Assembly: GCA_965112155.1 (NCBI GenBank)
Contig: OZ218103.1
Direction: 5' to 3' (one strand)
Length of the DNA: 64,000 nt
Source of the DNA: Podarcis liolepis
Taxonomy: Eukaryota
The notes beneath the pieces were generated by a model. The model saw only the letters and a program-made list of their open reading frames with translations. It did not search any database and had not been told where the DNA came from. The translations under genes were made by a program, and so were the position numbers. This document shows positions 20,789 to 59,135 of this stretch, in pieces; position 1 is the first letter of the stretch, and every line of letters begins with the position of its first letter.

Positions 20789-21351
20789 ATCTAGATACTA
20801 TTTTAATGTGTAGCCATCAATTATGCATAGCCATCGATTATAATGTAATTAACATCACACACAACTTTTCAGCGTTCCATATGCACCTGAAACTCAGGAT
20901 AACAGATCCAATGAAGCAAACCAACACTCAAGATAGATTTGTGTGTGTACATGTGTGTATATGCTCAAGGTGGGGCCTAAAAGTCTCAAATACCCTCTCC
21001 AGCCAGGGTCTCCAATAGCCCTAAACCAACCTTTTTAGGCCACAAGCCTCCCTAATAAAATAAATTTAGGACACAAGAAACACAAGTATAGACTGCCAGG
21101 GGCACCAGCAGCCGGAAAAGCTACAGGCCCCGGCAGTGAGGCACACATAGGAGCCAACTCCTAGGGGCCAAAGTCCCTTCAGCCATCCCAATAAAATATG
21201 TGACCCCCCTCGCAAGTTGCCATTCAAATAGTGTGCGTGTATGCAGTGTTGTGGTCGGTTATGGGGGAGCTTACCTGTCCCCCCAAACATTTTATTTACC
21301 CCTGGATGCACATCATGCGTGTATCTCTCCCTTATACAACTCCGCCCTTTA

Positions 21352-21930
<579 letters not shown>

Positions 21931-22055
21931 AACTCTCCTCCTCTCTGCTGCTGCCCCACTTGGGGGAAATATACAGTATATATATCCAGTGTTAATATAT
22001 CACTTGTGTTGAGGTCGATGGGGGCTCTCACGCGCAAGTGAACGTGTAAGGGATT

Positions 22056-22423
22056 GCAGACCCTCCAAGTGTTCCTATTTTCCAGGGGCATCGCTGATTT
22101 AGAGAAGCTGTCCCGGTTTCTGATTTGATCCACTTTTCCTTAGGATGGCCCTACCTTTACCTTGGAGAAATGTTGGAGGGGATGGAATAGAACTTCCCTA
22201 TTGTCGTTGGAGAAATGTTGGAGGGTATGGAGTTTATGCGACCGCCAAGCGGTCTGAAGGCAATCCTGTATAGGGAAGTTGTTTTTTTTAATGTTTTTAT
22301 ATCTGTTGGAAGCTGCCCAGAGTAGCTGGGGCAACCCAGTCAGATGTGTGGGGCATAAATAGTAAAATTATCATTATGGAATGGAATGTCCCTATTTTCA
22401 TTGGAGAAATGTTGGAGGGTATG
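22056..22423. mobile_element. Second copy (opposite orientation) of the composite repeat at 4575-4941
   Basis: gagaaatgttggaggg subrepeats, with the L2-like segment in the same relative position. Confidence 0.6.
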
Positions 22424-31209: not shown

Positions 31210-31670
31210 TCACACGATACGAATACCCCCCCCCCGCTTTCCCTCCCTCCCCGCGTGTCTGGAGGGGCAGAGGCTCCTCTCCCCGTTCTCGCGGTCCTTA
31301 CTTCCTTCTTCACCTCCGCCATTTCGTCGTCGGTAAGCGGCCGCCCGGCAGCCGGGAGCCCAGAGTCGGCCATGGCGGAAACGGCTTCGGAGGGCGACGG
31401 TGAGAGGGCGAGAGAGGGAAGGGAAGAAAGGAAGGGAGGGAGGAGGGAAAGAGAAGGGAGCCGCTGCCCCCCTCTTCCTCAGCGGCCCTTCAAGCCCGAC
31501 TCCCCCGGGGAGATGCCGAAGCTTCCGGCGCCGGGGTGAGAAGCCCCGCCCACCTCTCTCGAGGCCACGCCCACTCTCCGCCGGCCGTGGCGAGAGACCG
31601 CACGCAAGGCTTACCGCTGGCGCAGGCGCGCGCGCGCCCTTCCGGGCACTGCTACCTCCCTGCCAAATCG
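31210..31670. promoter_or_regulatory. CpG island / BCL10 promoter
   Basis: CpG-rich; GC box ccccgccc (~31543), ETS-type cttccgg (~31522, ~31639), gcgcgcgcgc run (~31626). Confidence 0.8.
31302..31373 (-). CDS. BCL10: BCL10 coding exon 1
   Basis: MADSGLPAAGRPLTDDEMAEVKKE; Kozak GCCATGG; donor GTAAGG; exons 72+289+359 nt = 239 aa plus stop. Confidence 0.93.
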
Positions 31671-31673
31671 CAG

Positions 31674-31809
31674 GATCATACCATTCGAAGGGACCGCCGG
31701 GGGCCATCCAAGTCCAACCCCCTGCAAATGCAGGGATCCTTTTGCCCGGCGTAGGGTTCGAGCCCATAACGCTGAGATAAAAGAGGCAACTCGCTCTACC
31801 AACTGAGCT
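31674..31809 (-). mobile_element. tRNA-derived SINE with CR1-type 3' tail
   Basis: Minus strand AGCTCAGTTGGTAGAGC (A box) ... GGGCTCGAACCC (B box), then a CR1-like ggttggacttggatggcc tail; related partial copy at ~34670-34776 (+). Confidence 0.7.
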
Positions 31810-32413
31810 CTTAATCTTATCTATCTAGGCAACTGCCCCCCCTCCAAAAAAGTAAATCAATAAAAAAATAATTAGCTGATGTTCCGCGCCCTAATAAAAA
31901 TCGTGGCAGCGCTCTTTAACTATTGCTAATCGTTTCTGCTTGGTTTTTTAGTGCTTATTTTGGCTGCGTTATTAATATTATTATTCTTTCTATATTTATC
32001 TACATCTCGCTTTTCTCACAAAACCAGGAATGTTCTGTTTTACAATTTAGAATACTCATTTAAACATCCTTAAAATACCAGTGACTTCCCTTCCTCTTTC
32101 CATGGTTCATTTGGCGTATCATAAATCCCTGCATATTTTACGCAAACTAAGCCATTCAGTATTCCATTATTACATCCATCAAAACTTATTTACACTGTTG
32201 AATTTATCTTAATGCTGCCAACGTTTTCAAGTGTACACAATTCCCGCCGCCCCAGTCAGATCCAGGATTCAAAGTGGCTCAAAACTAATCTAGAGATAGA
32301 ACACATATAGCTTAAAACATATAAGGTTGTGGTTAACCATTGTTAACTAAAAAAATGTAAAAATCAAATAAAAATCATTTGTTCATTTATTCGCCATTAG
32401 TTTATATCTACAT

Positions 32414-34323: not shown

Positions 34324-35992
34324 ATTTTTTTTAGTAGATGGTGGAGACTGTTATTTCCACAAAAGTAAAACATGTTTTCGATAATGTCAACCTTCCTTCA
34401 AAATACTGACTGTTATACTAAACTATGGGAGATACAATGCTGAAGCAAATTTGCGGCAGTGCTATTTATTGAGTTCCCACTAGAGGTCTCTGCTGTTTAA
34501 CACTTTCACCCCAACAAATCTCTCCCTCCCCCCAATCATTTCCAGCATTACTTTAAATTCTTATAATTTATAGCTACTAGATTGAAATTTCCACCTACAT
34601 TGTAGAGAAACGGGATAGAAGTGTATGGAGAAAGTGGCTAGAGAAGTTTCTCTCTCTCCTAGCACTGGAACTCGTGGACCTCATGGGTTCAAGTCCCACG
34701 TTGGGCAAAAGATTCCTGCATTGCAGGAGATCGGACTAGATGACCCTAGTGTCCTTTCCAACTCTATAATTCTATGAATTCATGGCACAAAAACAAGGCT
34801 TGGGGTAGGAGACAATGCTGAAAGAGATATCCTCTCAAGTCATCGTGTTCATGATTTGATGCAATTGTGTGCATACTTGTGTTGTGTACGTCTGTGTTGA
34901 GTAAGGAACTAGGAACCAGGAACCACGTTCAGTCTTGTAACACACAGCCCCCCTGCCCCCTCCTTTGATACCATATCTGAAAAACTCTCTCTCCGTGTAA
35001 GCTGTCGCTTGATGAAATCAGTTTTCCTTATCAGGAAGAGGAAGATTTCTCTCTCTTCCTTCTGAAGGAGCTCTGAAAGAAGATCGCTCAGAATGATTGC
35101 TGTATCCAGGTCATCTACATGTGACGTTCATAGCTCTTGACTCTTTAGCGCTCTTCCCAGCTCTCTCTGCTGTGCAGGTAGTGGTTTTATTACCACCCCG
35201 TTCCTCTTGCCGTCGCATGATTAATCCTTGACAATCTGAACTTCTGTTGGCTTGCAATCATCAAAGGTTACCTTGAAATAGGTGGCAGACTTTTAAGGAA
35301 AAAACACAGCGTGCATGCAAATGTCTTCCTAAATGCATGTAACATTTATTACCTTTTACTGTTCTGCCAGAGATGTTTTCTTGGAAATGTGGCAACAGCA
35401 TTCATCCCTGCTTTTGCCATGGCTGTTGTCTGTTTCCTTCCACATTTAACTTGGCTTCTGCATCATGAAATGGACCTTCTGTTTTTTATTTACTCCCTAA
35501 TGCAAAACTCATCTTTCCGCAAGGGGACTGTCTTCAGGCTTATGCTTTTCCACGGGCCAAGATGGGAATTTGCAGAAAGTAATTTTGCAATCTTTTACCT
35601 CTCACCTTTTACCTTCTTCTATTCAATGTTATAGCAAACCCAGTAGAAGCCTCCTTGGCATAAGACTGCTTCATATGTTCTTATCAGCGGAAGAATGATA
35701 CCCCACAGGTTGAGCCTGCCTAGATCAATCTCATCGATCAGACCACATTGTGGCAGAGAACAGCTGCCATGCGAAAAAATGCTTGCAGGACACCTCTCTC
35801 CAGGAAAGCCAAACCCATGTATTACTGCAGAAGGTAGGCCAGGATCTCTGGTCAGTTGGGGTACAATTTTGTTCCCTCCTTGAAATACCATTCTGAAATT
35901 GAGCAAAAAACCCTGCATATTGGATGGCAAGGGAACACAGCAATATACCAGTCCCCAACTGAAATCACCAATCTCCAAGTGTTTTTAGTTGT

Positions 35993-36784
35993 TGTCAGGG
36001 GTTTAGGAGCAGAAGCACGGGCAAGGGAGGAAACAGAGAGCGAAGGGGAGGAGGCAGAAGAAAAGATGAGTGACGACGACGACCCGAGATCTCCTAGTCT
36101 TTCCAGTGAATCAGAGGATTCACAGAAAGGAGCACCAGTGGCGAGGGCAAGGGGGGAGTCTAGGGGGGCACCCCAGGAAGACAGAGCCAGAGAGGACTCA
36201 GGGGGGAGCAGCTGGAAATCGGGACCAGCGTCACCGCCAGGAAGCAGGGAAGAGGAAGGGAGCCAGGGGGGAAGCGCTGGCAGCTCACCACAGGAGGGAG
36301 GACATGAGTCAGGAGTGGCCACACCTCCACAGGAGGGAGGACATGAGTCGGGGATGGCCACACCTCCATCGGGGAGCGAAGAAACGGTTGAGAGGAAAGT
36401 GGAAGGTTGGGCGCGCGCGCCAAGTTCAAATGCAGAGGAAGGCGGCGCAGTAAGCAGCCCCGAAAGAGAGCCAGGTCCTAAAGCCCGGCGCAAGGAGGCA
36501 GGAGGGTCTGGGTCAGCGTCAGAAGAATCCCGGAAGGAAGAAGCCCCGGGGGGTAGAGGGACCCAGAGGAGGACAGTCAGGAGGAAAAGGTGGAGCAAGG
36601 CTAGGATATTAAGTTGGTGCACACAGGGCGGAGACTCAGACGGAGCTTCGCCGACCTAGCTACTAGGCGTAGAGTTGCGCGCAGCAGCGTGAGAATGGAA
36701 ACTGTAATTCAATAAAGACTTTTACTTAATGACCGCTGGCTAGCGTGATCCTCTGTGAGCTAGGATCTTCAAGCAGCTCTGACA
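35993..36784 (+). repeat. 5' LTR (792 bp)
   Basis: Direct repeat of 41823-42614; TATTAA 36607-36612, AATAAA 36711-36716. Confidence 0.97.
36607..36648 (+). promoter_or_regulatory. LTR TATA-like box and predicted transcription start (~36638)
   Basis: TATTAA lies 31 nt upstream of agacggagctt, the segment complementary to the PBS. Confidence 0.7.
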
Positions 36785-36786
36785 GT

Positions 36787-36797
36787 AAGCTCCGTCT
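36787..36797 (+). other. Self-priming primer binding site (11 nt)
   Basis: aagctccgtct is the exact reverse complement of agacggagctt (36638-36648); no TGG-starting tRNA PBS. Confidence 0.85.
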
Positions 36798-36874
36798 CCT
36801 CTTGTGGGCATCTACAGCCTCGAGGAGGGGAGAGACACAGGTGCCTACTAGCAAGCTCACGAACGGCAGACGAC

Positions 36875-37939
36875 ATGACGGCTGAGCAGCAGATAGAGGA
36901 ACTCAGAAACGCGGTGGCACAACTGAACGCCGAGGCTCTAGCATCCAGGAAGAGGGAGGAGGAAGCAGCCGCAGCCTGCAGGGATCTCCAGGTCAGGTTA
37001 GACGTGCTGACAAAGCAGACACCCCGGCAGGAGGGCATTGGGTTGGCGAGACGGACAGGCGGGCTGGTCTCTCACTTCGATGGGAACCTGCAACAGTATC
37101 CCAACTTTAGAGCCGACGTACTGTGCGCACTGCAACTGCTGCATAAAGACTTTAGAAATGAACAAGAGAGAGTGGGGTTCATCATGTCCCATCTGCATGG
37201 GGATGCGAGAGCATGGCTACGCAATTTATGGAGAGATAAGGATCCGGCGCTACAGAATGCAGATGCCTTTATTAAAGCAATGGATGGGTGTTTTTTATCA
37301 AGTATTGACGTGGATCTTGCACGGAAGGAGGTGCATGGGCTGAGACAAGGGAGGGCCAGCGTCAGGCAGTACCATGCCCGCTTTTTCGCCTTGGTCAGTG
37401 CCCTGGAATGGGACAGAGATTCGGCTCCTGTAAGAGACCTCTTTTGGGAGGGGCTGCATAACTCGATTAAAGATGAGATCGCCAGGGGGGAGAGACCCCG
37501 AACCACCCAGGAGGTCGTTCAGAGGGCACTGGCAGTGGGGGTGAGGCTGGAAGGACGTCCGTGGAACAGGGACGAAGGGCGTGGAGGGCGCGAACCAGCC
37601 GGGGGCCCCTCTTTCTTTCCCAGGGAAGCAGCGCGGGCGCAATCCACGCCTCCGCCAGGAGGAGGAGCCGAACCTATGGAGGTGGGAGGTGCAAGGGCTC
37701 AGTCAGCAACCAGAGCCCTAGCACCAGCAGCAGTGAAAGCGAAGCCTCCTAGAGGGAACAGGAAGTGTTACGTCTGTGAGGAGCCAGGGCATATGGCGAA
37801 AGAGTGTCCCCAGAGGCCCCACAAGCTCACTGCAGCCTCAGCAATGGTGACTGCAGCAACACAGCAAGGAGGACCACAGCAGGGAAACGAGGCTGTCTGG
37901 CTGGAGGAAGAGGCACTGGGGCCCAGCCAGACGTGTTAG
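36875..37939 (+). CDS. gag: Retrotransposon Gag (coiled coil, capsid, CCHC nucleocapsid)
   Basis: FDGN..Y..F capsid motif, FWEGL...IKDEI, EPMEVG motif, CYVCEEPGHMAKEC zinc knuckle; 354 aa. Confidence 0.93.
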   Translation: MTAEQQIEELRNAVAQLNAEALASRKREEEAAAACRDLQVRLDVLTKQTPRQEGIGLARRTGGLVSHFDGNLQQYPNFRADVLCALQLLHKDFRNEQERVGFIMSHLHGDARAWLRNLWRDKDPALQNADAFIKAMDGCFLSSIDVDLARKEVHGLRQGRASVRQYHARFFALVSALEWDRDSAPVRDLFWEGLHNSIKDEIARGERPRTTQEVVQRALAVGVRLEGRPWNRDEGRGGREPAGGPSFFPREAARAQSTPPPGGGAEPMEVGGARAQSATRALAPAAVKAKPPRGNRKCYVCEEPGHMAKECPQRPHKLTAASAMVTAATQQGGPQQGNEAVWLEEEALGPSQTC

Positions 37940-37954
37940 TGACGCAGTCCCCAG
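37882..37954 (+). promoter_or_regulatory. -1 ribosomal frameshift signal (G GGA AAC plus pseudoknot)
   Basis: Slippery heptamer in the gag frame, 6-nt spacer, 10-bp stem 1 and 6-bp stem 2; pol is in the -1 frame. Confidence 0.85.
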
Positions 37955-40900
37955 CGATTTTACAGCCCGTGAACCCCCTCCCGCCCAAACCAGTAGTGAG
38001 GCTCACAGCGTCTCTCCAACTGCCCAATGGAATCACCATGGACGTGCCAATCACCATTGACTCAGGCAGCAATGCGGACTTTATAGGGCAGGACTTTGTC
38101 GACAGGCACGCTGTGCAGTTGCTGCCGGCCACACTGCCCCTGCAGGTTGTCACGGTGGATGGCAGGGAGCTGCTCGGGGGGCAAGTGGTGAAGCAGACGC
38201 CACCAATGGTGATGCGACTTGGGAATCACAGAGAAATCATCAGCTTCAACGTCACTCGACTATCTGACACGCCCATTGTATTGGGCATGAGTTGGCTGGA
38301 CAAGCACAGCCCAGCGATGGCTTGGTACCAGAGGCAGCTGACCTTCGGCTCTTCCTTTTGTGCTGAACACTGCATCGTGCCCAGGCAGGAAGGAGAGGAA
38401 GAGGAGTCACAGCTGCTGCTAGGCACGCTGCAAGCGATTCCACACAAGTACGCTGAATTTTTGGAAGTTTTCTGCGAGAAGGAGGCAGACAGGCTACCCC
38501 CTCACAGACCATATGACTGCAAAATTGACCTGCTGCCGGGGGCGGCGCTGCCTAAAGGGAAACTGTATTCCATGTCAGAGGACGAACTGCAGGAACTCAA
38601 AGAGTTCATTGACCATAATTTGCAACGCGGCTTCATCCGGGAGTCCAGGGCAGTGGGGGGCAGTCCCGTATTCTTTGTTAAGAAGCGGGACACGCCCCAG
38701 AAAAGACTGGTAGTGGATTACAGGATTTTGAACAGTCTGACTAGGCCATCGGACTTCCCCATGCCCCGTATTGACGACCTCCTCGCAAAGGTACGGAAGG
38801 GCAGAGTGTTCACCAAGTTGGACCTGCGGGGGGCGTACAACCTCATTCGCATGCGGGAAGGAGATGAGTGGAAGACAGCCATGTTCACGCCACTGGGGAC
38901 CTACGAATATAGAGTTATGCCTTTTGGATTGCAAAATGGCTCCCACGTTTTTCAAGCGTTTATGCATCACGTGTTGGCGGGACTTCTCTACAAGACGTGC
39001 GTCTGTTTCTTAGATGACATCCTGATCTTTTCGGAGTCGCAGCAGGAGCATGACGGACACGTCAAGGAAGTGCTGAGCAGGCTAAAGCAACATAGGCTCT
39101 ACGCCAAGCTGGAGAAGTGCCAATTTGACGTGCCGGAGGTGGATTTTCTGGGCTACAAGCTGTCTGACAAGGGGCTCGCCATGGACAGCGCCAAGGTTCG
39201 AGCGGTGTTGGATTGGAAGAGTCCGCGCAACCGGAAGGAGGTCCAACGGTTTGTCGGCTTTGCGAACTTCTATCGCAAGTTTATCAAGGGCTTCGCGATG
39301 CAGACAGCGGCCATCACTGACACGCTTAGCTCCAAGAAGAAGAAGTTCGTTTGGACAGCGCAGGCGGAGCAGTCCTTTCAGGCACTCAAGCGTCTCTTCG
39401 CGTCGGAAGAGCAGCTGCTTCATGTCAACCCCAGCAAGCCGATGAGGGTGGAGACAGACGCCTCGGACAGAGCCGTGGGGGCGGTCCTGTTGCAGAAAGA
39501 CCCGCAGGGGGTGTGGCGACCGGGAGCGTTTTACTCCAGGAAGCTCAGCAAGTCCGAACAGAGCTACACCATCTGGGACAGGGAGTTGCTGGCCATTCAC
39601 GCAGCGTTCAAGGCGTGGAGGCACTTTCTGATCGGCGCCAAGCACACGGTGCAGGTTTGCACGGACCACAAGAATCTAGAGCACTGGCGCACGGCACAGT
39701 TCCTGAACCAGAGGCAGATACGTTGGGCTGAGTTCTTTGCAAACTTCGACTTCCGAATAGAGTATGTCCCGGGGGACACCAACATCATGGCAGACGCTCT
39801 CTCCCGTAAGCCACAGTATCTGGAGGACGCAACGCCAGCGGCCGCCATGCACATCTTCGCACCAGCAGTGTGGGCGTGCGCCGCGGCGACCGTGGACCTA
39901 GAGGCGGTGCGACGTGCGTTGCAGGAGGACTCCTTCGCACAAGCAAAGATGGCAGAGGTGCAAAGGGGCAAGGCAGCGGCCGACGGTTTCCGGTTACGAG
40001 ATGGATTGCTCATCCGAAAAGGGGCCATCTACGTGCCGGGAGACGAACTTCGAGCCAAGGTGCTGCAGCAGCTGCACGACGCGCCCACGGCCGGGCACTT
40101 TGGCAAGGAGAAGACGGTGGAATTAGTAGCCAGGGATTTCTGGTGGCCTGGAATGAGAGGGGAGGTCGCAGACTACGTGGCGAGGTGCGACACCTGCCAG
40201 AGGGCCAAACCAGTGCACAAACCGCCGGCCGGACTGTTGGAACCGCTGCAAACTCCGGTCGAACCTTGGGAAAGGGTGGCTCTGGACTTTGTCACGGATC
40301 TGCCCAGCTCAAGGGGCAAGACGGCAGTGCTGGTGGTGGTGGACCTGTTTTCCAAGATGGCGCATTTCATTCCGTGTGCGAAGGTGGCCACTGCGGAGCA
40401 AACCGCCAAACTGTTCATAGACCACGTGTTCAAGGTTCATGGTCTGCCACGGTCTATTCTGTCCGACCGGGGGCGGCAGTTCATCTCGAATTTCTGGCAG
40501 AAGCTGATGGGCTTCCTGAACGTCAAGATCAACCTGGCGTCGGCGAGACACCCGCAGACCAACGGGCAAGCGGAGCGGGTCAATGCCATCATGCAGCAGT
40601 ACCTGAGATGTTATGCAAATCAACAGCCTGCGACGTGGGTGGATTACCTACCGCTTGCCGAGTTCGCCTACAACAACACGAAGCACGTGTCCACGGGGGT
40701 CACGCCGTTCTTCGCCAACAACGGGAGGCACCCCAGAACCTTCCCGGGACTGGAAAGAATGGGGGAGGGGGAGCCGCAGACAGCAGATGCGTTCGCGTCG
40801 GAGCTGCAGGAGGTCCACGATCAGCTGAGGCGCCACCTGGAGCTGGCCAAGCACGCATACAAGGTACAAGCAGACAAGCACAGAAGGGTTGGAGAAGAGC

Positions 40901-42489
40901 TCCACGTGGGAGACTGGGTTTGGTTAGCAGCCCACGCAGTGCCGGCCAGGTCGTTGGCCAAGAAGAAACTAGGGCATAAGCAACTGGGGCCCTACCAAGT
41001 CGAAGAGCAGGTCAACCCGGTAGCTTTCAGACTGGCACTTCCGGAGGGTTCCAGAATGCATCCGGTATTCCACAGATCGGTGCTCACTCCCTACAAGGCA
41101 CCGCACAGGTTCCAGGAACCCAGAACAGCGCCGAGTCCGGTCAGAGACAGAACAGGGCACGCGGAAGTGGCACAGAAGGAGCGCATCAACGAAGTCACTG
41201 AGATTTTGGACTCCAGATGGGGGGAAGAGGGGGTAGAATACTTTCTCGCCAAGGAGGGCACCCCGGCCAGTGCGAACAGCTGGGTGCCGGGCTACGCCTT
41301 GGACGAACCTCTCCTCAAAGACGAGTTTCATGCCCTCTTTCCCCATAGACCTATGCCAGCAGAATATTTTGACGACTGGCTTTTCACGCCCACACTTTCG
41401 GCCAGCACTTTCCGGGGGTTCGACTCGGACGAGGACCCGACACAAGACGTCCGTTCCCCGGAGGGGTCACCCTCGGGATCTGCATCAGAACCCTCGTATT
41501 GGTGGGACGATAGGCCAGAGGAGCAGTGGCGCAGACGGTGGCTGGAAGGCCCAGGACGAGCAACACCGACAGGAGGAAGTGAGGGAGAGACGGACATGGA
41601 CGTTTTCGGGGACGACCCTGGTTTCGAGCACGGCGGCACAGAGATGGAAGCGGAGGTGACTGTCGTCGACGAGAGCGGGGAGGAAGACCCGGGAGACTTC
41701 AGATGGAGGCCTGCCACGGGAAGCGACCGATACCCGACGTTCGTCCCTTTGCGACAGCAGCCCCCAGCTCCAGCACCGGAAGGAGGGGAGGGGGGAATGG
41801 GGGGCTTCGAGGGGGGGATGGATGTCAGGGGTTTAGGAGCAGAAGCACGGGCAAGGGAGGAAACAGAGAGCGAAGGGGAGGAGGCAGAAGAAAAGATGAG
41901 TGACGACGACGACCCGAGATCTCCTAGTCTTTCCAGTGAATCAGAGGATTCACAGAAAGGAGCACCAGTGGCGAGGGCAAGGGGGGAGTCTAGGGGGGCA
42001 CCCCAGGAAGACAGAGCCAGAGAGGACTCAGGGGGGAGCAGCTGGAAATCGGGACCAGCGTCACCGCCAGGAAGCAGGGAAGAGGAAGGGAGCCAGGGGG
42101 GAAGCGCTGGCAGCTCACCACAGGAGGGAGGACATGAGTCAGGAGTGGCCACACCTCCACAGGAGGGAGGACATGAGTCGGGGATGGCCACACCTCCATC
42201 GGGGAGCGAAGAAACGGTTGAGAGGAAAGTGGAAGGTTGGGCGCGCGCGCCAAGTTCAAATGCAGAGGAAGGCGGCGCAGTAAGCAGCCCCGAAAGAGAG
42301 CCAGGTCCTAAAGCCCGGCGCAAGGAGGCAGGAGGGTCTGGGTCAGCGTCAGAAGAATCCCGGAAGGAAGAAGCCCCGGGGGGTAGAGGGACCCAGAGGA
42401 GGACAGTCAGGAGGAAAAGGTGGAGCAAGGCTAGGATATTAAGTTGGTGCACACAGGGCGGAGACTCAGACGGAGCTTCGCCGACCTAG
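37888..42489 (+). CDS. pol: Pol (protease, RT, RNase H, integrase with GPY/F, chromodomain, long acidic extension), expressed as a ~1,871-aa Gag-Pol by -1 frameshift
   Basis: IDSGS protease site (38059), FLDD RT site (39007), ETDASD RNase H, H..H/CDTC zinc finger, D-D-E (LDFVT, SDRG.QF, GQAERVN), LGPYQV, chromo-like EILDSR..VEYF..NSWVP; no stops or frameshifts. Confidence 0.95.
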   Translation, partial: RGCLAGGRGTGAQPDVLVTQSPAILQPVNPLPPKPVVRLTASLQLPNGITMDVPITIDSGSNADFIGQDFVDRHAVQLLPATLPLQVVTVDGRELLGGQVVKQTPPMVMRLGNHREIISFNVTRLSDTPIVLGMSWLDKHSPAMAWYQRQLTFGSSFCAEHCIVPRQEGEEEESQLLLGTLQAIPHKYAEFLEVFCEKEADRLPPHRPYDCKIDLLPGAALPKGKLYSMSEDELQELKEFIDHNLQRGFIRESRAVGGSPVFFVKKRDTPQKRLVVDYRILNSLTRPSDFPMPRIDDLLAKVRKGRVFTKLDLRGAYNLIRMREGDEWKTAMFTPLGTYEYRVMPFGLQNGSHVFQAFMHHVLAGLLYKTCVCFLDDILIFSESQQEHDGHVKEVLSRLKQHRLYAKLEKCQFDVPEVDFLGYKLSDKGLAMDSAKVRAVLDWKSPRNRKEVQRFVGFANFYRKFIKGFAMQTAAITDTLSSKKKKFVWTAQAEQSFQALKRLFASEEQLLHVNPSKPMRVETDASDRAVGAVLLQKDPQGVWRPGAFYSRKLSKSEQSYTIWDRELLAIHAAFKAWRHFLIGAKHTVQVCTDHKNLEHWRTAQFLNQRQIRWAEFFANFDFRIEYVPGDTNIMADALSRKPQYLEDATPAAAMHIFAPAVWACAAATVDLEAVRRALQEDSFAQAKMAEVQRGKAAADGFRLRDGLLIRKGAIYVPGDELRAKVLQQLHDAPTAGHFGKEKTVELVARDFWWPGMRGEVADYVARCDTCQRAKPVHKPPAGLLEPLQTPVEPWERVALDFVTDLPSSRGKTAVLVVVDLFSKMAHFIPCAKVATAEQTAKLFIDHVFKVHGLPRSILSDRGRQFISNFWQKLMGFLNVKINLASARHPQTNGQAERVNAIMQQYLRCYANQQPATWVDYLPLAEFAYNNTKHVSTGVTPFFANNGRHPRTFPGLERMGEGEPQTADAFASELQEVHDQLRRHLELAKHAYKVQADKHRRVGEELHVGDWVWLAAHAVPARSLAKKKLGHKQLGPYQVEEQVNPVAFRLALPEGSRMHPVFHRSVLTPYKAPHRFQEPRTAPSPVRDRTGHAEVAQKERINEVTEILDSRWGEEGVEYFLAKEGTPASANSWVPGYALDEPLLKDEFHALFPHRPMPAEYFDDWLFTPTLSASTFRGFDSDEDPTQDVRSPEGSPSGSASEPSYWWDDRPEEQWRRRWLEGPGRATPTGGSEGETDMDVFGDDPGFEHGGTEMEAEVTVVDESGEEDPGDFRWRPATGSDRYPTFVPLRQQPPAPAPEGGEGGMGGFEGGMDVRGLGAEARAREETESEGEEAEEKMSDDDDPRSPSLSSESEDSQKGAPVARARGESRGAPQEDRAREDSGGSSWKSGPASPPGSREEEGSQGGSAGSSPQEGGHESGVATPPQEGGHESGMATPPSGSEETVERKVEGWARAPSSNAEEGGAVSSPEREPGPKARRKEAGGSGSASEESRKEEAPGGRGTQRRTVRRKRWSKARILSWCTQGGDSDGASPT
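41809..41822 (+). other. Polypurine tract
   Basis: gagggggggatgga immediately 5' of the 3' LTR. Confidence 0.85.
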
Positions 42490-42614
42490 CTACTAGGCGT
42501 AGAGTTGCGCGCAGCAGCGTGAGAATGGAAACTGTAATTCAATAAAGACTTTTACTTAATGACCGCTGGCTAGCGTGATCCTCTGTGAGCTAGGATCTTC
42601 AAGCAGCTCTGACA
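41823..42614 (+). repeat. 3' LTR (792 bp)
   Basis: No differences from the 5' LTR seen by eye; translations identical in several frames; AATAAA 42541-42546. Confidence 0.97.
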
Positions 42615-42842
42615 GTTGTAGAGGGCAAAAACATTGCACCTGTGCAATATTAGCTGCAGTACTGCAGTCCCAATCCAACACATACATACCCAGCTACTAT
42701 TTAACTTAATATATATATATATATATATGTGGGAGATTCTGATCATGGGCCCCGTGTGTTACACCTGTGCCTTACGTATTCATTAAACTGTGCCAAATTA
42801 GCTAAAATCACGCTTATAGTGATAGTGGTATAGTGGTTAGAA

Positions 42843-57497: not shown

Positions 57498-59135
57498 CCT
57501 TTCCCAGCAGGCTTCCATCACTCGCACCCACATGTGCATTCATCACACATACGGCAAATATACACTCACACCAGCACCATGCATGTTGCACACAACAAGC
57601 ACATATACAGCATGCACAATGACCACACATGCAGGCACAAGGCACTCTCTCTTTAGTGTACCTCACCACCACCACTGCTTCCCCACCCTCGCAAGAAAAT
57701 AGGTGCCAGAACTCACCATGAAGTTGTTACAGTAAGTCGCCAGGCTACTGGGGCAGCCCTGAAAACGTGCCGGTTTGACAACAGCTGCATTCACCGCCCA
57801 TGGAGGTGCTAAAAACTACAGAAAGCTGGTTTGGGGGTCGCCCCTGATTCTGGTGTAGGTCGAATAAATGCACTCCTTCCTCATTCGTTCTCTTAGATTC
57901 AGGCGGATGGCTAGGGCAGCTTTGAAGGGCCCTCGCGCAAACGTGCGTATGGGCAATGGTGGAGGCCTGGCCAAAAAGCTTAAAGCCTTCCACCACTACA
58001 TGGGAGATGGGTTGAAGAAAAGGAAATACAAATTGGCCCCGATCCATAGCTTTGCTAATCACAGCTAGGAGTTGCTGGCAGCTAGGTGGAGTAATAGATT
58101 TTAAAGAACACACTGGCCAGCTGCGATTTTGACTTGAAATGTTCATCTGGGGCTTCTCAGAAGTATGTAAAGGCACGAAGTGGGGGGGGGGGATGGAGTG
58201 CTGGCCTACAATGGCGCCAACCTGAGAGGTGCTGGAACTGCACTCTGGTGCGTTGCGGCTGAAAAAAAACCACAGGATACTCCCGCTATTATTTTACTTT
58301 GGCCTTTCAGTGGCAGTTAGGAATCTAACTGATAACCAGGCTGTAGATTTGCACTACTCTTGACACGGTGTCCCTGAGCTGCTCTGCTGCCTCTTCTGAT
58401 ATAACCTTGAAACAAGGCGGCACTGGGGGCATAGCTTCAGCCATTGCATAGGAACTCCTGCAGAAAGCAAAAAACATGTCCAGGAAATGGCTCAAACTGC
58501 TGTTGCATTCAAGAAATTTCGGAGAATGAACATCCTGTCTTTTGGAACACGAGCAGGGGAAGAGAAGGGAAGTTGGTCCTCAGAAAAGCAAAGGAAAGCA
58601 AACAAGAACAATAACAAGGGAAGCCAAGTTCCTATTTACGTAAGCCAAGCGGACAGCTTCCCCAGTCACAAGAGCTGGCAAGCTCCGGGTGGCCAGAGGT
58701 ACATGATTAGAGGAGTCCCAAACTTTTAACACACATTTGTTTACTAGCTTAATTTCTCTGCTAACTTTTCTTTGCTATGGTTAATTGCTGTACTCTCAGC
58801 ATTTCTGTGGTTAGCTGAACTCTTTCGCAATCACAGATTCGCCCAGTTTATTATGCAACTGCAGCAAAAGAGAGAGAGAAATCTGAAAAAAAGTTTCAAA
58901 AAATGTATAAGGGGACAGCGCTTCAGTGCCTGCTAGATGCTGGCGTAGCGAGGCAGCAACCCGGCTCACCCAGTAAAAATGGACCCCAAAGCCTGCCTAA
59001 AGTGACCTGCAGCTTAATAAACAATATCTCTTGCTTGCAGTAGAATAGTGGGGAAAGGCAGAACTGATAACATGAGGTTTCAGCATACTTTAAAAGCTGA
59101 AGGTTCTAGGAATGCTGAAAGCTCTGAAAACAGCA

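Follow-up and report, generated by a model that had tools for sequence, protein, structure and literature searches.

The pol frame of a very young Tf1/sushi-type retrotransposon of Podarcis liolepis passes through the whole U3, and its youngest copies cluster at chromosome ends

The window, a stretch of 64,000 nucleotides from the lizard Podarcis liolepis, contains a complete LTR retrotransposon whose pol frame continues past the chromodomain, through the polypurine tract (PPT) and through the entire U3 of the 3' LTR, and this long tail is almost certainly coding sequence. A sequence-only reading of the same DNA had recognised the long frame; new relative to it is that the youngest copies are clustered at chromosome ends, mostly with target-site duplications of their own. 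Besides this concentration, the earlier reading had overlooked the precedent of the plant CRM elements and the loss of the aromatic cage in the chromodomain. Here is a vertebrate LTR in which the whole U3 is protein-coding, with measurable selection at the protein level and a small block constrained at the DNA level, promoter and integrase thus evolving on one sequence. Furthermore, a single genome offers a natural comparison of the end-clustered subfamilies A (terminal satellite) and B/F (telomere repeats) with the dispersed young family S, and the choice of telomeric or centromeric chromatin by retrotransposons becomes testable in a vertebrate.

The element and its open frame

After the residues EFHALFP, which end at 41343, 381 codons follow until the TAG at 42487-42489, and 221 whole codons of this tail lie inside the LTR; both figures agree with the earlier estimates of about 380 and about 221. 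The stop had been placed just inside R, and it stands 20 nt into R, since the RNA-supported start site is placed at 36638/42468. The features of the element are the following.

35993-42614 (+): whole element, complete LTR retrotransposon, very young Tf1/sushi-type chromovirus
35988-35992 (no strand): left target-site duplication GTTGT, 5 bp (sequence)
35993-36784 (+): 5' LTR, 792 bp, identical to the 3' LTR letter for letter (sequence comparison)
36638-36648 (+): transcription start and 11-nt self-primer, complementary to the primer-binding site, PBS (RNA loose ends; complementarity)
36787-36797 (+): PBS of the self-priming type (11-nt match to 36638-36648)
36875-37939 (+): gag, with Ty3 capsid and zinc knuckle (Pfam PF19259, PF03732, PF00098)
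37882-37945 (+): predicted -1 frameshift signal, a G GGA AAC heptamer followed by a stem of -21.6 kcal/mol (sequence pattern)
37780-42489 (+): pol frame with PR, RT, RNase H, IN, SH3, chromodomain and tail, 1569 aa stop to stop (ORF, Pfam)
41191-41343 (+): remodelled chromodomain, aromatic-cage positions N, K, T (PF00385, 19.3 bits)
41344-42486 (+): C-terminal tail, 381 aa, acidic, G/S/P-rich (ORF; no Pfam match, no predicted fold)
41371-41400 (+): conserved motif DDWLFTPTLS, invariant residues with varying codons (copy comparison)
41494-41529 (+): conserved motif SYWWDD.PE..W (copy comparison)
41806-41822 (+): PPT, read in frame as G-F-E-G-G-M-D, DNA-level constraint (invariant codons)
41823-42614 (+): 3' LTR (sequence comparison)
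41823-42467 (+): U3 of the 3' LTR, fully coding (dN/dS 0.35)
42247-42262 (+): 16-bp block coding APSSN, candidate dual-coded promoter element (invariant in 10 diverged copies)
42397-42450 (+): basic stretch and (I/L)LxW motif, common to families S, O and P0054; putative, likely import signal
42468-42614 (+): R-U5 of the 3' LTR, with the pol stop 42487-42489 and AATAAA at 42541-42546
42615-42619 (no strand): right target-site duplication GTTGT

The pol frame lies in the -1 frame relative to gag, and the G GGA AAC heptamer at 37882, a candidate frameshift signal, together with the stem downstream suggests a -1 frameshift between the two. The start site was located with short RNA reads of a related organism, all of one sample and amounting to about 12% of two runs: adapter-like loose ends, whose letters we presume to be those of a template-switch oligo, were found just before 36638 in 46 and 33 reads of the two runs, exactly where the 11-nt PBS-complementary segment begins. 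Loose ends at 36019 were rejected as a start site, being likely an adapter artefact at a place where the genome resembles the adapter end. In the same RNA the start site of family S was not seen.

By domain order, chromodomain and self-priming the element is assigned to the Tf1/sushi chromoviruses, and not to the CRM group. Pfam gives the order PR-RT-RNase H-IN with an SH3 (GPY/F) module, a chromodomain of degenerate form stands at the integrase C-terminus, and the PBS is complementary over 11 nt to the 5' end of the element's own RNA, where RNA 5' ends were in fact detected; this self-priming layout is the one described for Tf1/sushi elements (PMC4600332, PMC6317226). PBS and self-primer change together in subfamily B and in family S.

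Among 5000 dinucleotide shuffles the whole tail remained free of stops in 2, its pre-LTR part in 154 and U3 alone in 49, the T content of U3 being 9.6%. An antisense frame (41328-42485, 385 aa) is also open in the window copy; it was rejected as a gene and is regarded as a shadow of the sense frame, since it carries 21 stops across 10 diverged copies and is not conserved. The Pfam search of pol gave no match to the tail, and a single-sequence AlphaFold prediction of chromodomain plus tail yielded no usable model (mean pLDDT 46.5). Four other long stop-free frames of the window, at 21066-22139 (-), 21232-22041 (+), 31210-31824 (-) and 57745-58293 (-), had no Pfam match either.

Selection on the tail and its relatives

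The family is very young: between the window and the 29 other best-matching copies there is one differing site in 1416. The same 1569-codon frame was present in 125 of the 150 copies that scored best among 2230 candidates, a sample drawn with protein queries, which favour open frames. Near-identical copies of this subfamily A are uninformative on selection, therefore diverged copies were sought. With the tails of Podarcis muralis proteins, subfamilies B to F were found in the Podarcis liolepis genome, down to 62% DNA identity to the window. The tail is also present, with 54-79% identity, in named Podarcis muralis proteins, and among 29 that reach the end of the chromodomain 13 continue to the same C-terminus, the others being cut or shifted. 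An in-frame 39-bp tandem duplication in U3 (42122-42199 and 36292-36369) is specific to subfamily A.

In ten real copies, one or two per subfamily and chosen for their open frame (L003, L099, L105, L095, L082, L061, L065, L084, L031, L052), dN/dS was 0.07 in the integrase core, 0.07 in the chromodomain, 0.48 in the linker, 0.35 in the pre-LTR tail and 0.35 in U3 (0.348, IQ-TREE). U3 departs from neutrality (dN/dS 1) with 2dlnL 118, both of its halves lying at 0.32-0.36, and the other frames gave 2.49 and 1.19 (sense) and 1.75, 0.47 and 1.57 (antisense). Third codon positions vary more (permutation p 5e-5). The aligner-free comparison of five equal-length copies led to the same picture, with 41/44/92 variable columns by codon position and dN/dS of 0.21-0.35 in 10 of 10 pairs. 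Of the residues invariant in the ten copies, 24% in U3 and 31% in the integrase core also keep one and the same codon, compared with 82% at PPT/att (9 of 11).

The earlier reading had asked of related copies a U3 frame open and in phase, indels in multiples of three and dN/dS below 1. The last was borne out by the values above, and the first by most copies of subfamilies A to D and family S: the tail reaches its usual end in 30/30 A, 22/30 B, 21/25 C/D, 9/22 E/F and 25/25 S copies, three E/F loci being unanchored and five loci being present in two sets. For indels the outcome was divided. The net lengths of coding U3 (667, 631, 670, 658, 652 and 349 nt) share one phase, a property partly built in by the choice of open copies, but only 10 of 21 single U3 gaps in pairwise DNA alignment are triplets, so the frame argument is one of net lengths; 3' of the stop, 11 of 12 gaps are non-triplet. 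Codon variation at invariant residues, dN/dS and the shared phase together indicate that U3 is constrained mainly as protein, and the idea that it is at once promoter region and coding sequence stands with this purifying selection.

More distant relatives were also recognised. Family S (P0047), 44% identical over the integrase C-terminal region, has a shorter LTR that codes 101-116 codons in the same phase, with the stop just past the self-primer. Family O was recovered with a tail-less query and still has the tail; among 30 of its old copies 19 keep the end motif and 7 the frame open to the end. The unnamed protein P0054 has the same layout as the window element, and as query for further tail relatives it returned only itself (352-1120 aa band). 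The subfamilies, S, O and P0054 all end in a basic stretch plus (I/L/V)LxW, although these families are only about 44-56% identical in the integrase region. As the earlier reading had stated for sushi/Tf1 Pol, ending near the chromodomain is the rule: in most of 58 other chromodomain-bearing representatives, drawn from the best 150, no more than about 50 aa follow it. Coding through U3 is older than end-clustering and not sufficient for it, because family S codes through U3, yet is dispersed.

Chromosome ends, the chromodomain and a possible role of the tail

Of the 150 youngest subfamily A copies 60 lie within 0.5 Mb of a chromosome end, where 1.3% were expected (31-fold). The corresponding numbers are 26/66 for B, 17/51 for C/D and 3/103 for S, leaving out copies on C20 and on small contigs (33 B, 63 C/D, 47 S), and 7/54 for the old family O, which means that retention contributes to the clustering. 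The copies counted are the best-scoring ones of capped searches. Subfamily A nearly always occupies one end per chromosome, and 60% of its copies are interstitial, including the window copy, 30 Mb from an end. Family sequence was matched by 21 of 40 terminal 6-kb segments and by 1 of 40 segments of 10 kb taken 0.8 and 1.6 Mb inward; 11 of 15 samples from element-rich ends consist of 78-95% family sequence, versus 0-8% in five samples from opposite ends. GC is lower at the element-rich end in 10/10 chromosomes (0.448 vs 0.493, p=0.002). These observations suggest that one end of many chromosomes of Podarcis liolepis is built largely from one retrotransposon family, and since lacertid chromosomes are mostly described as acrocentric (PMC7290949), the end preferred by subfamily A is probably the centromere-side one.

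Telomere repeats (TTAGGG) directly 3' of the LTR were found in 11/30 B and 8/25 E/F copies, and in none of 30 A, 25 C/D, 25 S and 30 O copies. Telomeric B and E/F copies stand in both orientations, and subfamily B is also present in telomere arrays at the opposite ends. An own 5-bp duplication flanks 5 of 6 telomeric B copies and 25 of the 33 end-proximal A copies that have both LTR ends, 24 of the latter duplications being different; the other 8 of the 33 show no matching duplication. The telomeric B copies L236-L240 share one hexamer target phase (CTAAC or its complement GTTAG) in both orientations.

Several side observations concern these ends and other parts of the genome. Head-to-tail copies 5830 bp apart with shared LTRs were seen at C1:139.387-139.399 Mb, C4:35.21 Mb and C7:16-22 kb. 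A satellite of ~500 bp is interspersed at element-rich ends, and its 40 best hits are all terminal; it forms tandem repeats at L189:6360-10000, L195:6100-8231 and L160 (ends of C14, C5 and C21), with a ~1968-bp higher-order repeat at the start of C21, and is a candidate centromeric or subterminal satellite. A 185-bp satellite (L150, C10) fills small contigs up to about 1.5 Mb; used in the search for centromeres, it gave best hits only on small contigs, not on the large chromosomes. C20, which makes up 2.6% of placed sequence and is likely the W chromosome, holds 56/114 C/D and 45/150 S copies, many O copies and 0/150 of the youngest A copies.

The chromodomain itself is altered in subfamilies A to F. 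With PF00385 the window copy reaches 19.3 bits (E=0.001), under the cut-off of 25.1, and family S, with a near-normal domain, 43.3 bits. Type I chromodomains, which bind methylated H3K9, are described as having three aromatic cage residues (PMC3059260), and in 9/9 copies shown these positions are N, K/R and T/A, so A-F are not of this type; family S keeps two of the aromatics and family O one. The nearest clusters in the Atlas search were chromodomains only, all with scores under 0.9. Since conservation of the cage-less domain equals that of the catalytic core, a new function is likely. The HxLxP at the end of the chromodomain, presumably a shelterin-docking pattern, was rejected as a discriminator, as it also occurs in family O (0/30 telomeric flanks) and in 4/58 distant relatives.

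We lean towards the explanation that the tail forms a disordered arm of the integrase, which bears an import signal as well as binding motifs and acts together with the remodelled chromodomain in steering insertion to chromosome ends. The tail would be translated as part of Gag-Pol via the -1 frameshift and would remain on the integrase as a long arm, to which the single-sequence model gave no fold; its basic/LLxW end would serve nuclear import across the whole clade, and the extra tail motifs of A-F and the altered chromodomain would tether integration to terminal chromatin, that is to telomere arrays for B and F and to the terminal ~500-bp satellite domain for A. The separate steps differ in strength: the tail probably remains part of the integrase, and its own contribution to targeting, for which the distribution gives a correlation, is conceivable but somewhat doubtful. 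Chromodomain change and tail motifs are confounded within one clade. Were the explanation right, promoter changes in U3 would also alter the targeting arm.

Alternatively, the tail could be a real protein with a housekeeping role (import, solubility, particle or pre-integration complex), and the end-clustering could be an effect of the altered chromodomain by itself, of copies landing in older ones, or of gene-poor ends in which copies are kept and duplicated. Families S and O, which have the tail while S is dispersed, would fit this, as would the chromodomain, the clearest difference of the A-F clade and conserved like the IN core. It would also fit that many end copies are inserted in older family copies, that some arose by tandem or segmental duplication (a flank is common to L012 and L013; 5.83-kb spacings occur), and that family O has its own share near ends. 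Nevertheless young S copies of the same genome were not retained there, most end-proximal A copies bear their own, different duplications, and telomeric B copies come from scattered branches of the B tree and occur in both orientations. Moreover, with nearly the same chromodomain and tails 62% identical, subfamilies B and A differ in their immediate target (11/30 vs 0/30 with a telomere-repeat flank, p=0.0003). We consider this alternative rather unlikely.

A separate accessory protein, Nef- or Sag-like, released by the protease or expressed from an mRNA or start codon of its own and acting on the host cell, is less likely again. The earlier reading had left the choice between a long disordered integrase extension and such a protein; the former accords with the absence of a predicted fold, and no sign of the latter was obtained. 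Its location in U3 resembles that of nef and sag, an in-frame ATG stands at the PPT edge in A-F, and in sense RNA the depth of U3 and of the pre-LTR tail exceeds that of pol several-fold. However, no splice joints across the element were listed in the RNA (short reads at low depth), S has GTG and O has Val in place of the ATG, the frame runs on from the integrase without interruption in every multi-copy family examined, and 3' bias and solo LTRs could account for the higher depth. The same reads contained two further observations. At the 5' edge of the LTR (41802-42028) antisense reads pile up to about 74-fold depth and do not run on into pol; they may reflect outward promoter activity or host transcripts. 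At the family-S insertion L137:2560-8026 the RNA of the related organism shows an empty site (243 and 164 joining reads), situated just before a poly(A) site of a host transcript; this is a recent insertion into a 3' end.

That the open frame is a mere by-product of T-poor composition or 3' UTR shortening, with irrelevant residues, is scarcely credible and was largely refuted: U3 is T-poor and opens in some shuffles, and about two thirds of tail residues are variable, yet this idea, which the sequence-only reading had named as its own refutation, is contradicted by dN/dS and the third-position excess, by motifs kept while codons change and an end motif common to distant families, and by the T-rich U3 described for the Sushi clade (PMC3601003), against which the T-poverty here is atypical.

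Comparison with known systems

Like Sushi-ichi, Amn-ichi/ni/san, Tf1 and Tj1, as these are described, the lizard element has Gag, PR-RT-RH-IN-SH3-chromodomain, a self-priming PBS, TG..CA LTRs and a 5-bp duplication. Unlike the Tf1/sushi elements, its Pol passes the chromodomain, its U3 is coding and T-poor, and its chromodomain cage is lost.

HIV nef and MMTV sag overlap U3 and are separate genes expressed from their own mRNAs. The overlap of coding sequence with U3 is shared with them, whereas the lizard frame is an unbroken extension of pol, and at the low RNA depth available no spliced form was listed. That U3-overlapping frames are known mainly from retroviruses, as had been stated before, is not supported, since plant elements precede this one: in CRM group A chromoviruses, which are centromeric, a CR motif is described as encoded in the 3' LTR (PMC3059260), and the coding region of beet Bingo1-4 and 7 is likewise reported to extend into the LTR (PMC3605345).

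Targeting by the integrase C-terminus has been described in copia elements: that of Ty5 leads to telomeric silent chromatin via Sir4 (review PMC4700185), the disordered integrase half of Ty1 to Pol III genes, and the C-terminus of Arabidopsis Tal1 to CENH3 chromatin. A long or disordered integrase C-terminus is common to these and to the lizard element, but the copia tails lie between IN and RT, outside the LTR, and targeting was established there by experiment and is approached here by distribution. The telomere-specific non-LTR elements of silkworm and fly, which insert at or in telomeric DNA according to the same review (PMC4700185), resemble it in this insertion preference; in contrast to these insect elements, the lizard family has LTRs, inserts by way of an integrase and is found in TTAGGG arrays of a vertebrate, many of its copies lying elsewhere. 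The literature search returned no report of the lizard family, nor of any vertebrate LTR element residing in telomere arrays; outside its range were subscription journals and repeat databases, in which the long ORF could be described.

The closest parallel is with CRM group A (CRM, Beetle) and Bingo1-4 and 7, which, as described, share with the lizard element coding through the PPT into the 3' LTR and an altered integrase C-terminus coupled to a restricted chromosomal location. The differences are that the lizard PBS is self-complementary and that of CRM matches tRNA-Met; that a degenerate chromodomain stands upstream of the PPT where in CRM, by description, the CR motif replaces the chromodomain; and that the host is a vertebrate and the whole U3 is coding. 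The lizard element is not a CRM member but likely works like one. More tentatively, a vertebrate clade of integrase-based retrotransposons might home to TTAGGG arrays and centromere-side ends by a repurposed chromodomain and a U3-encoded tail, building terminal arrays of 0.2-0.5 Mb that may belong to lizard centromere-telomere domains, and would then be a convergent animal counterpart of plant CRM and yeast Ty5.
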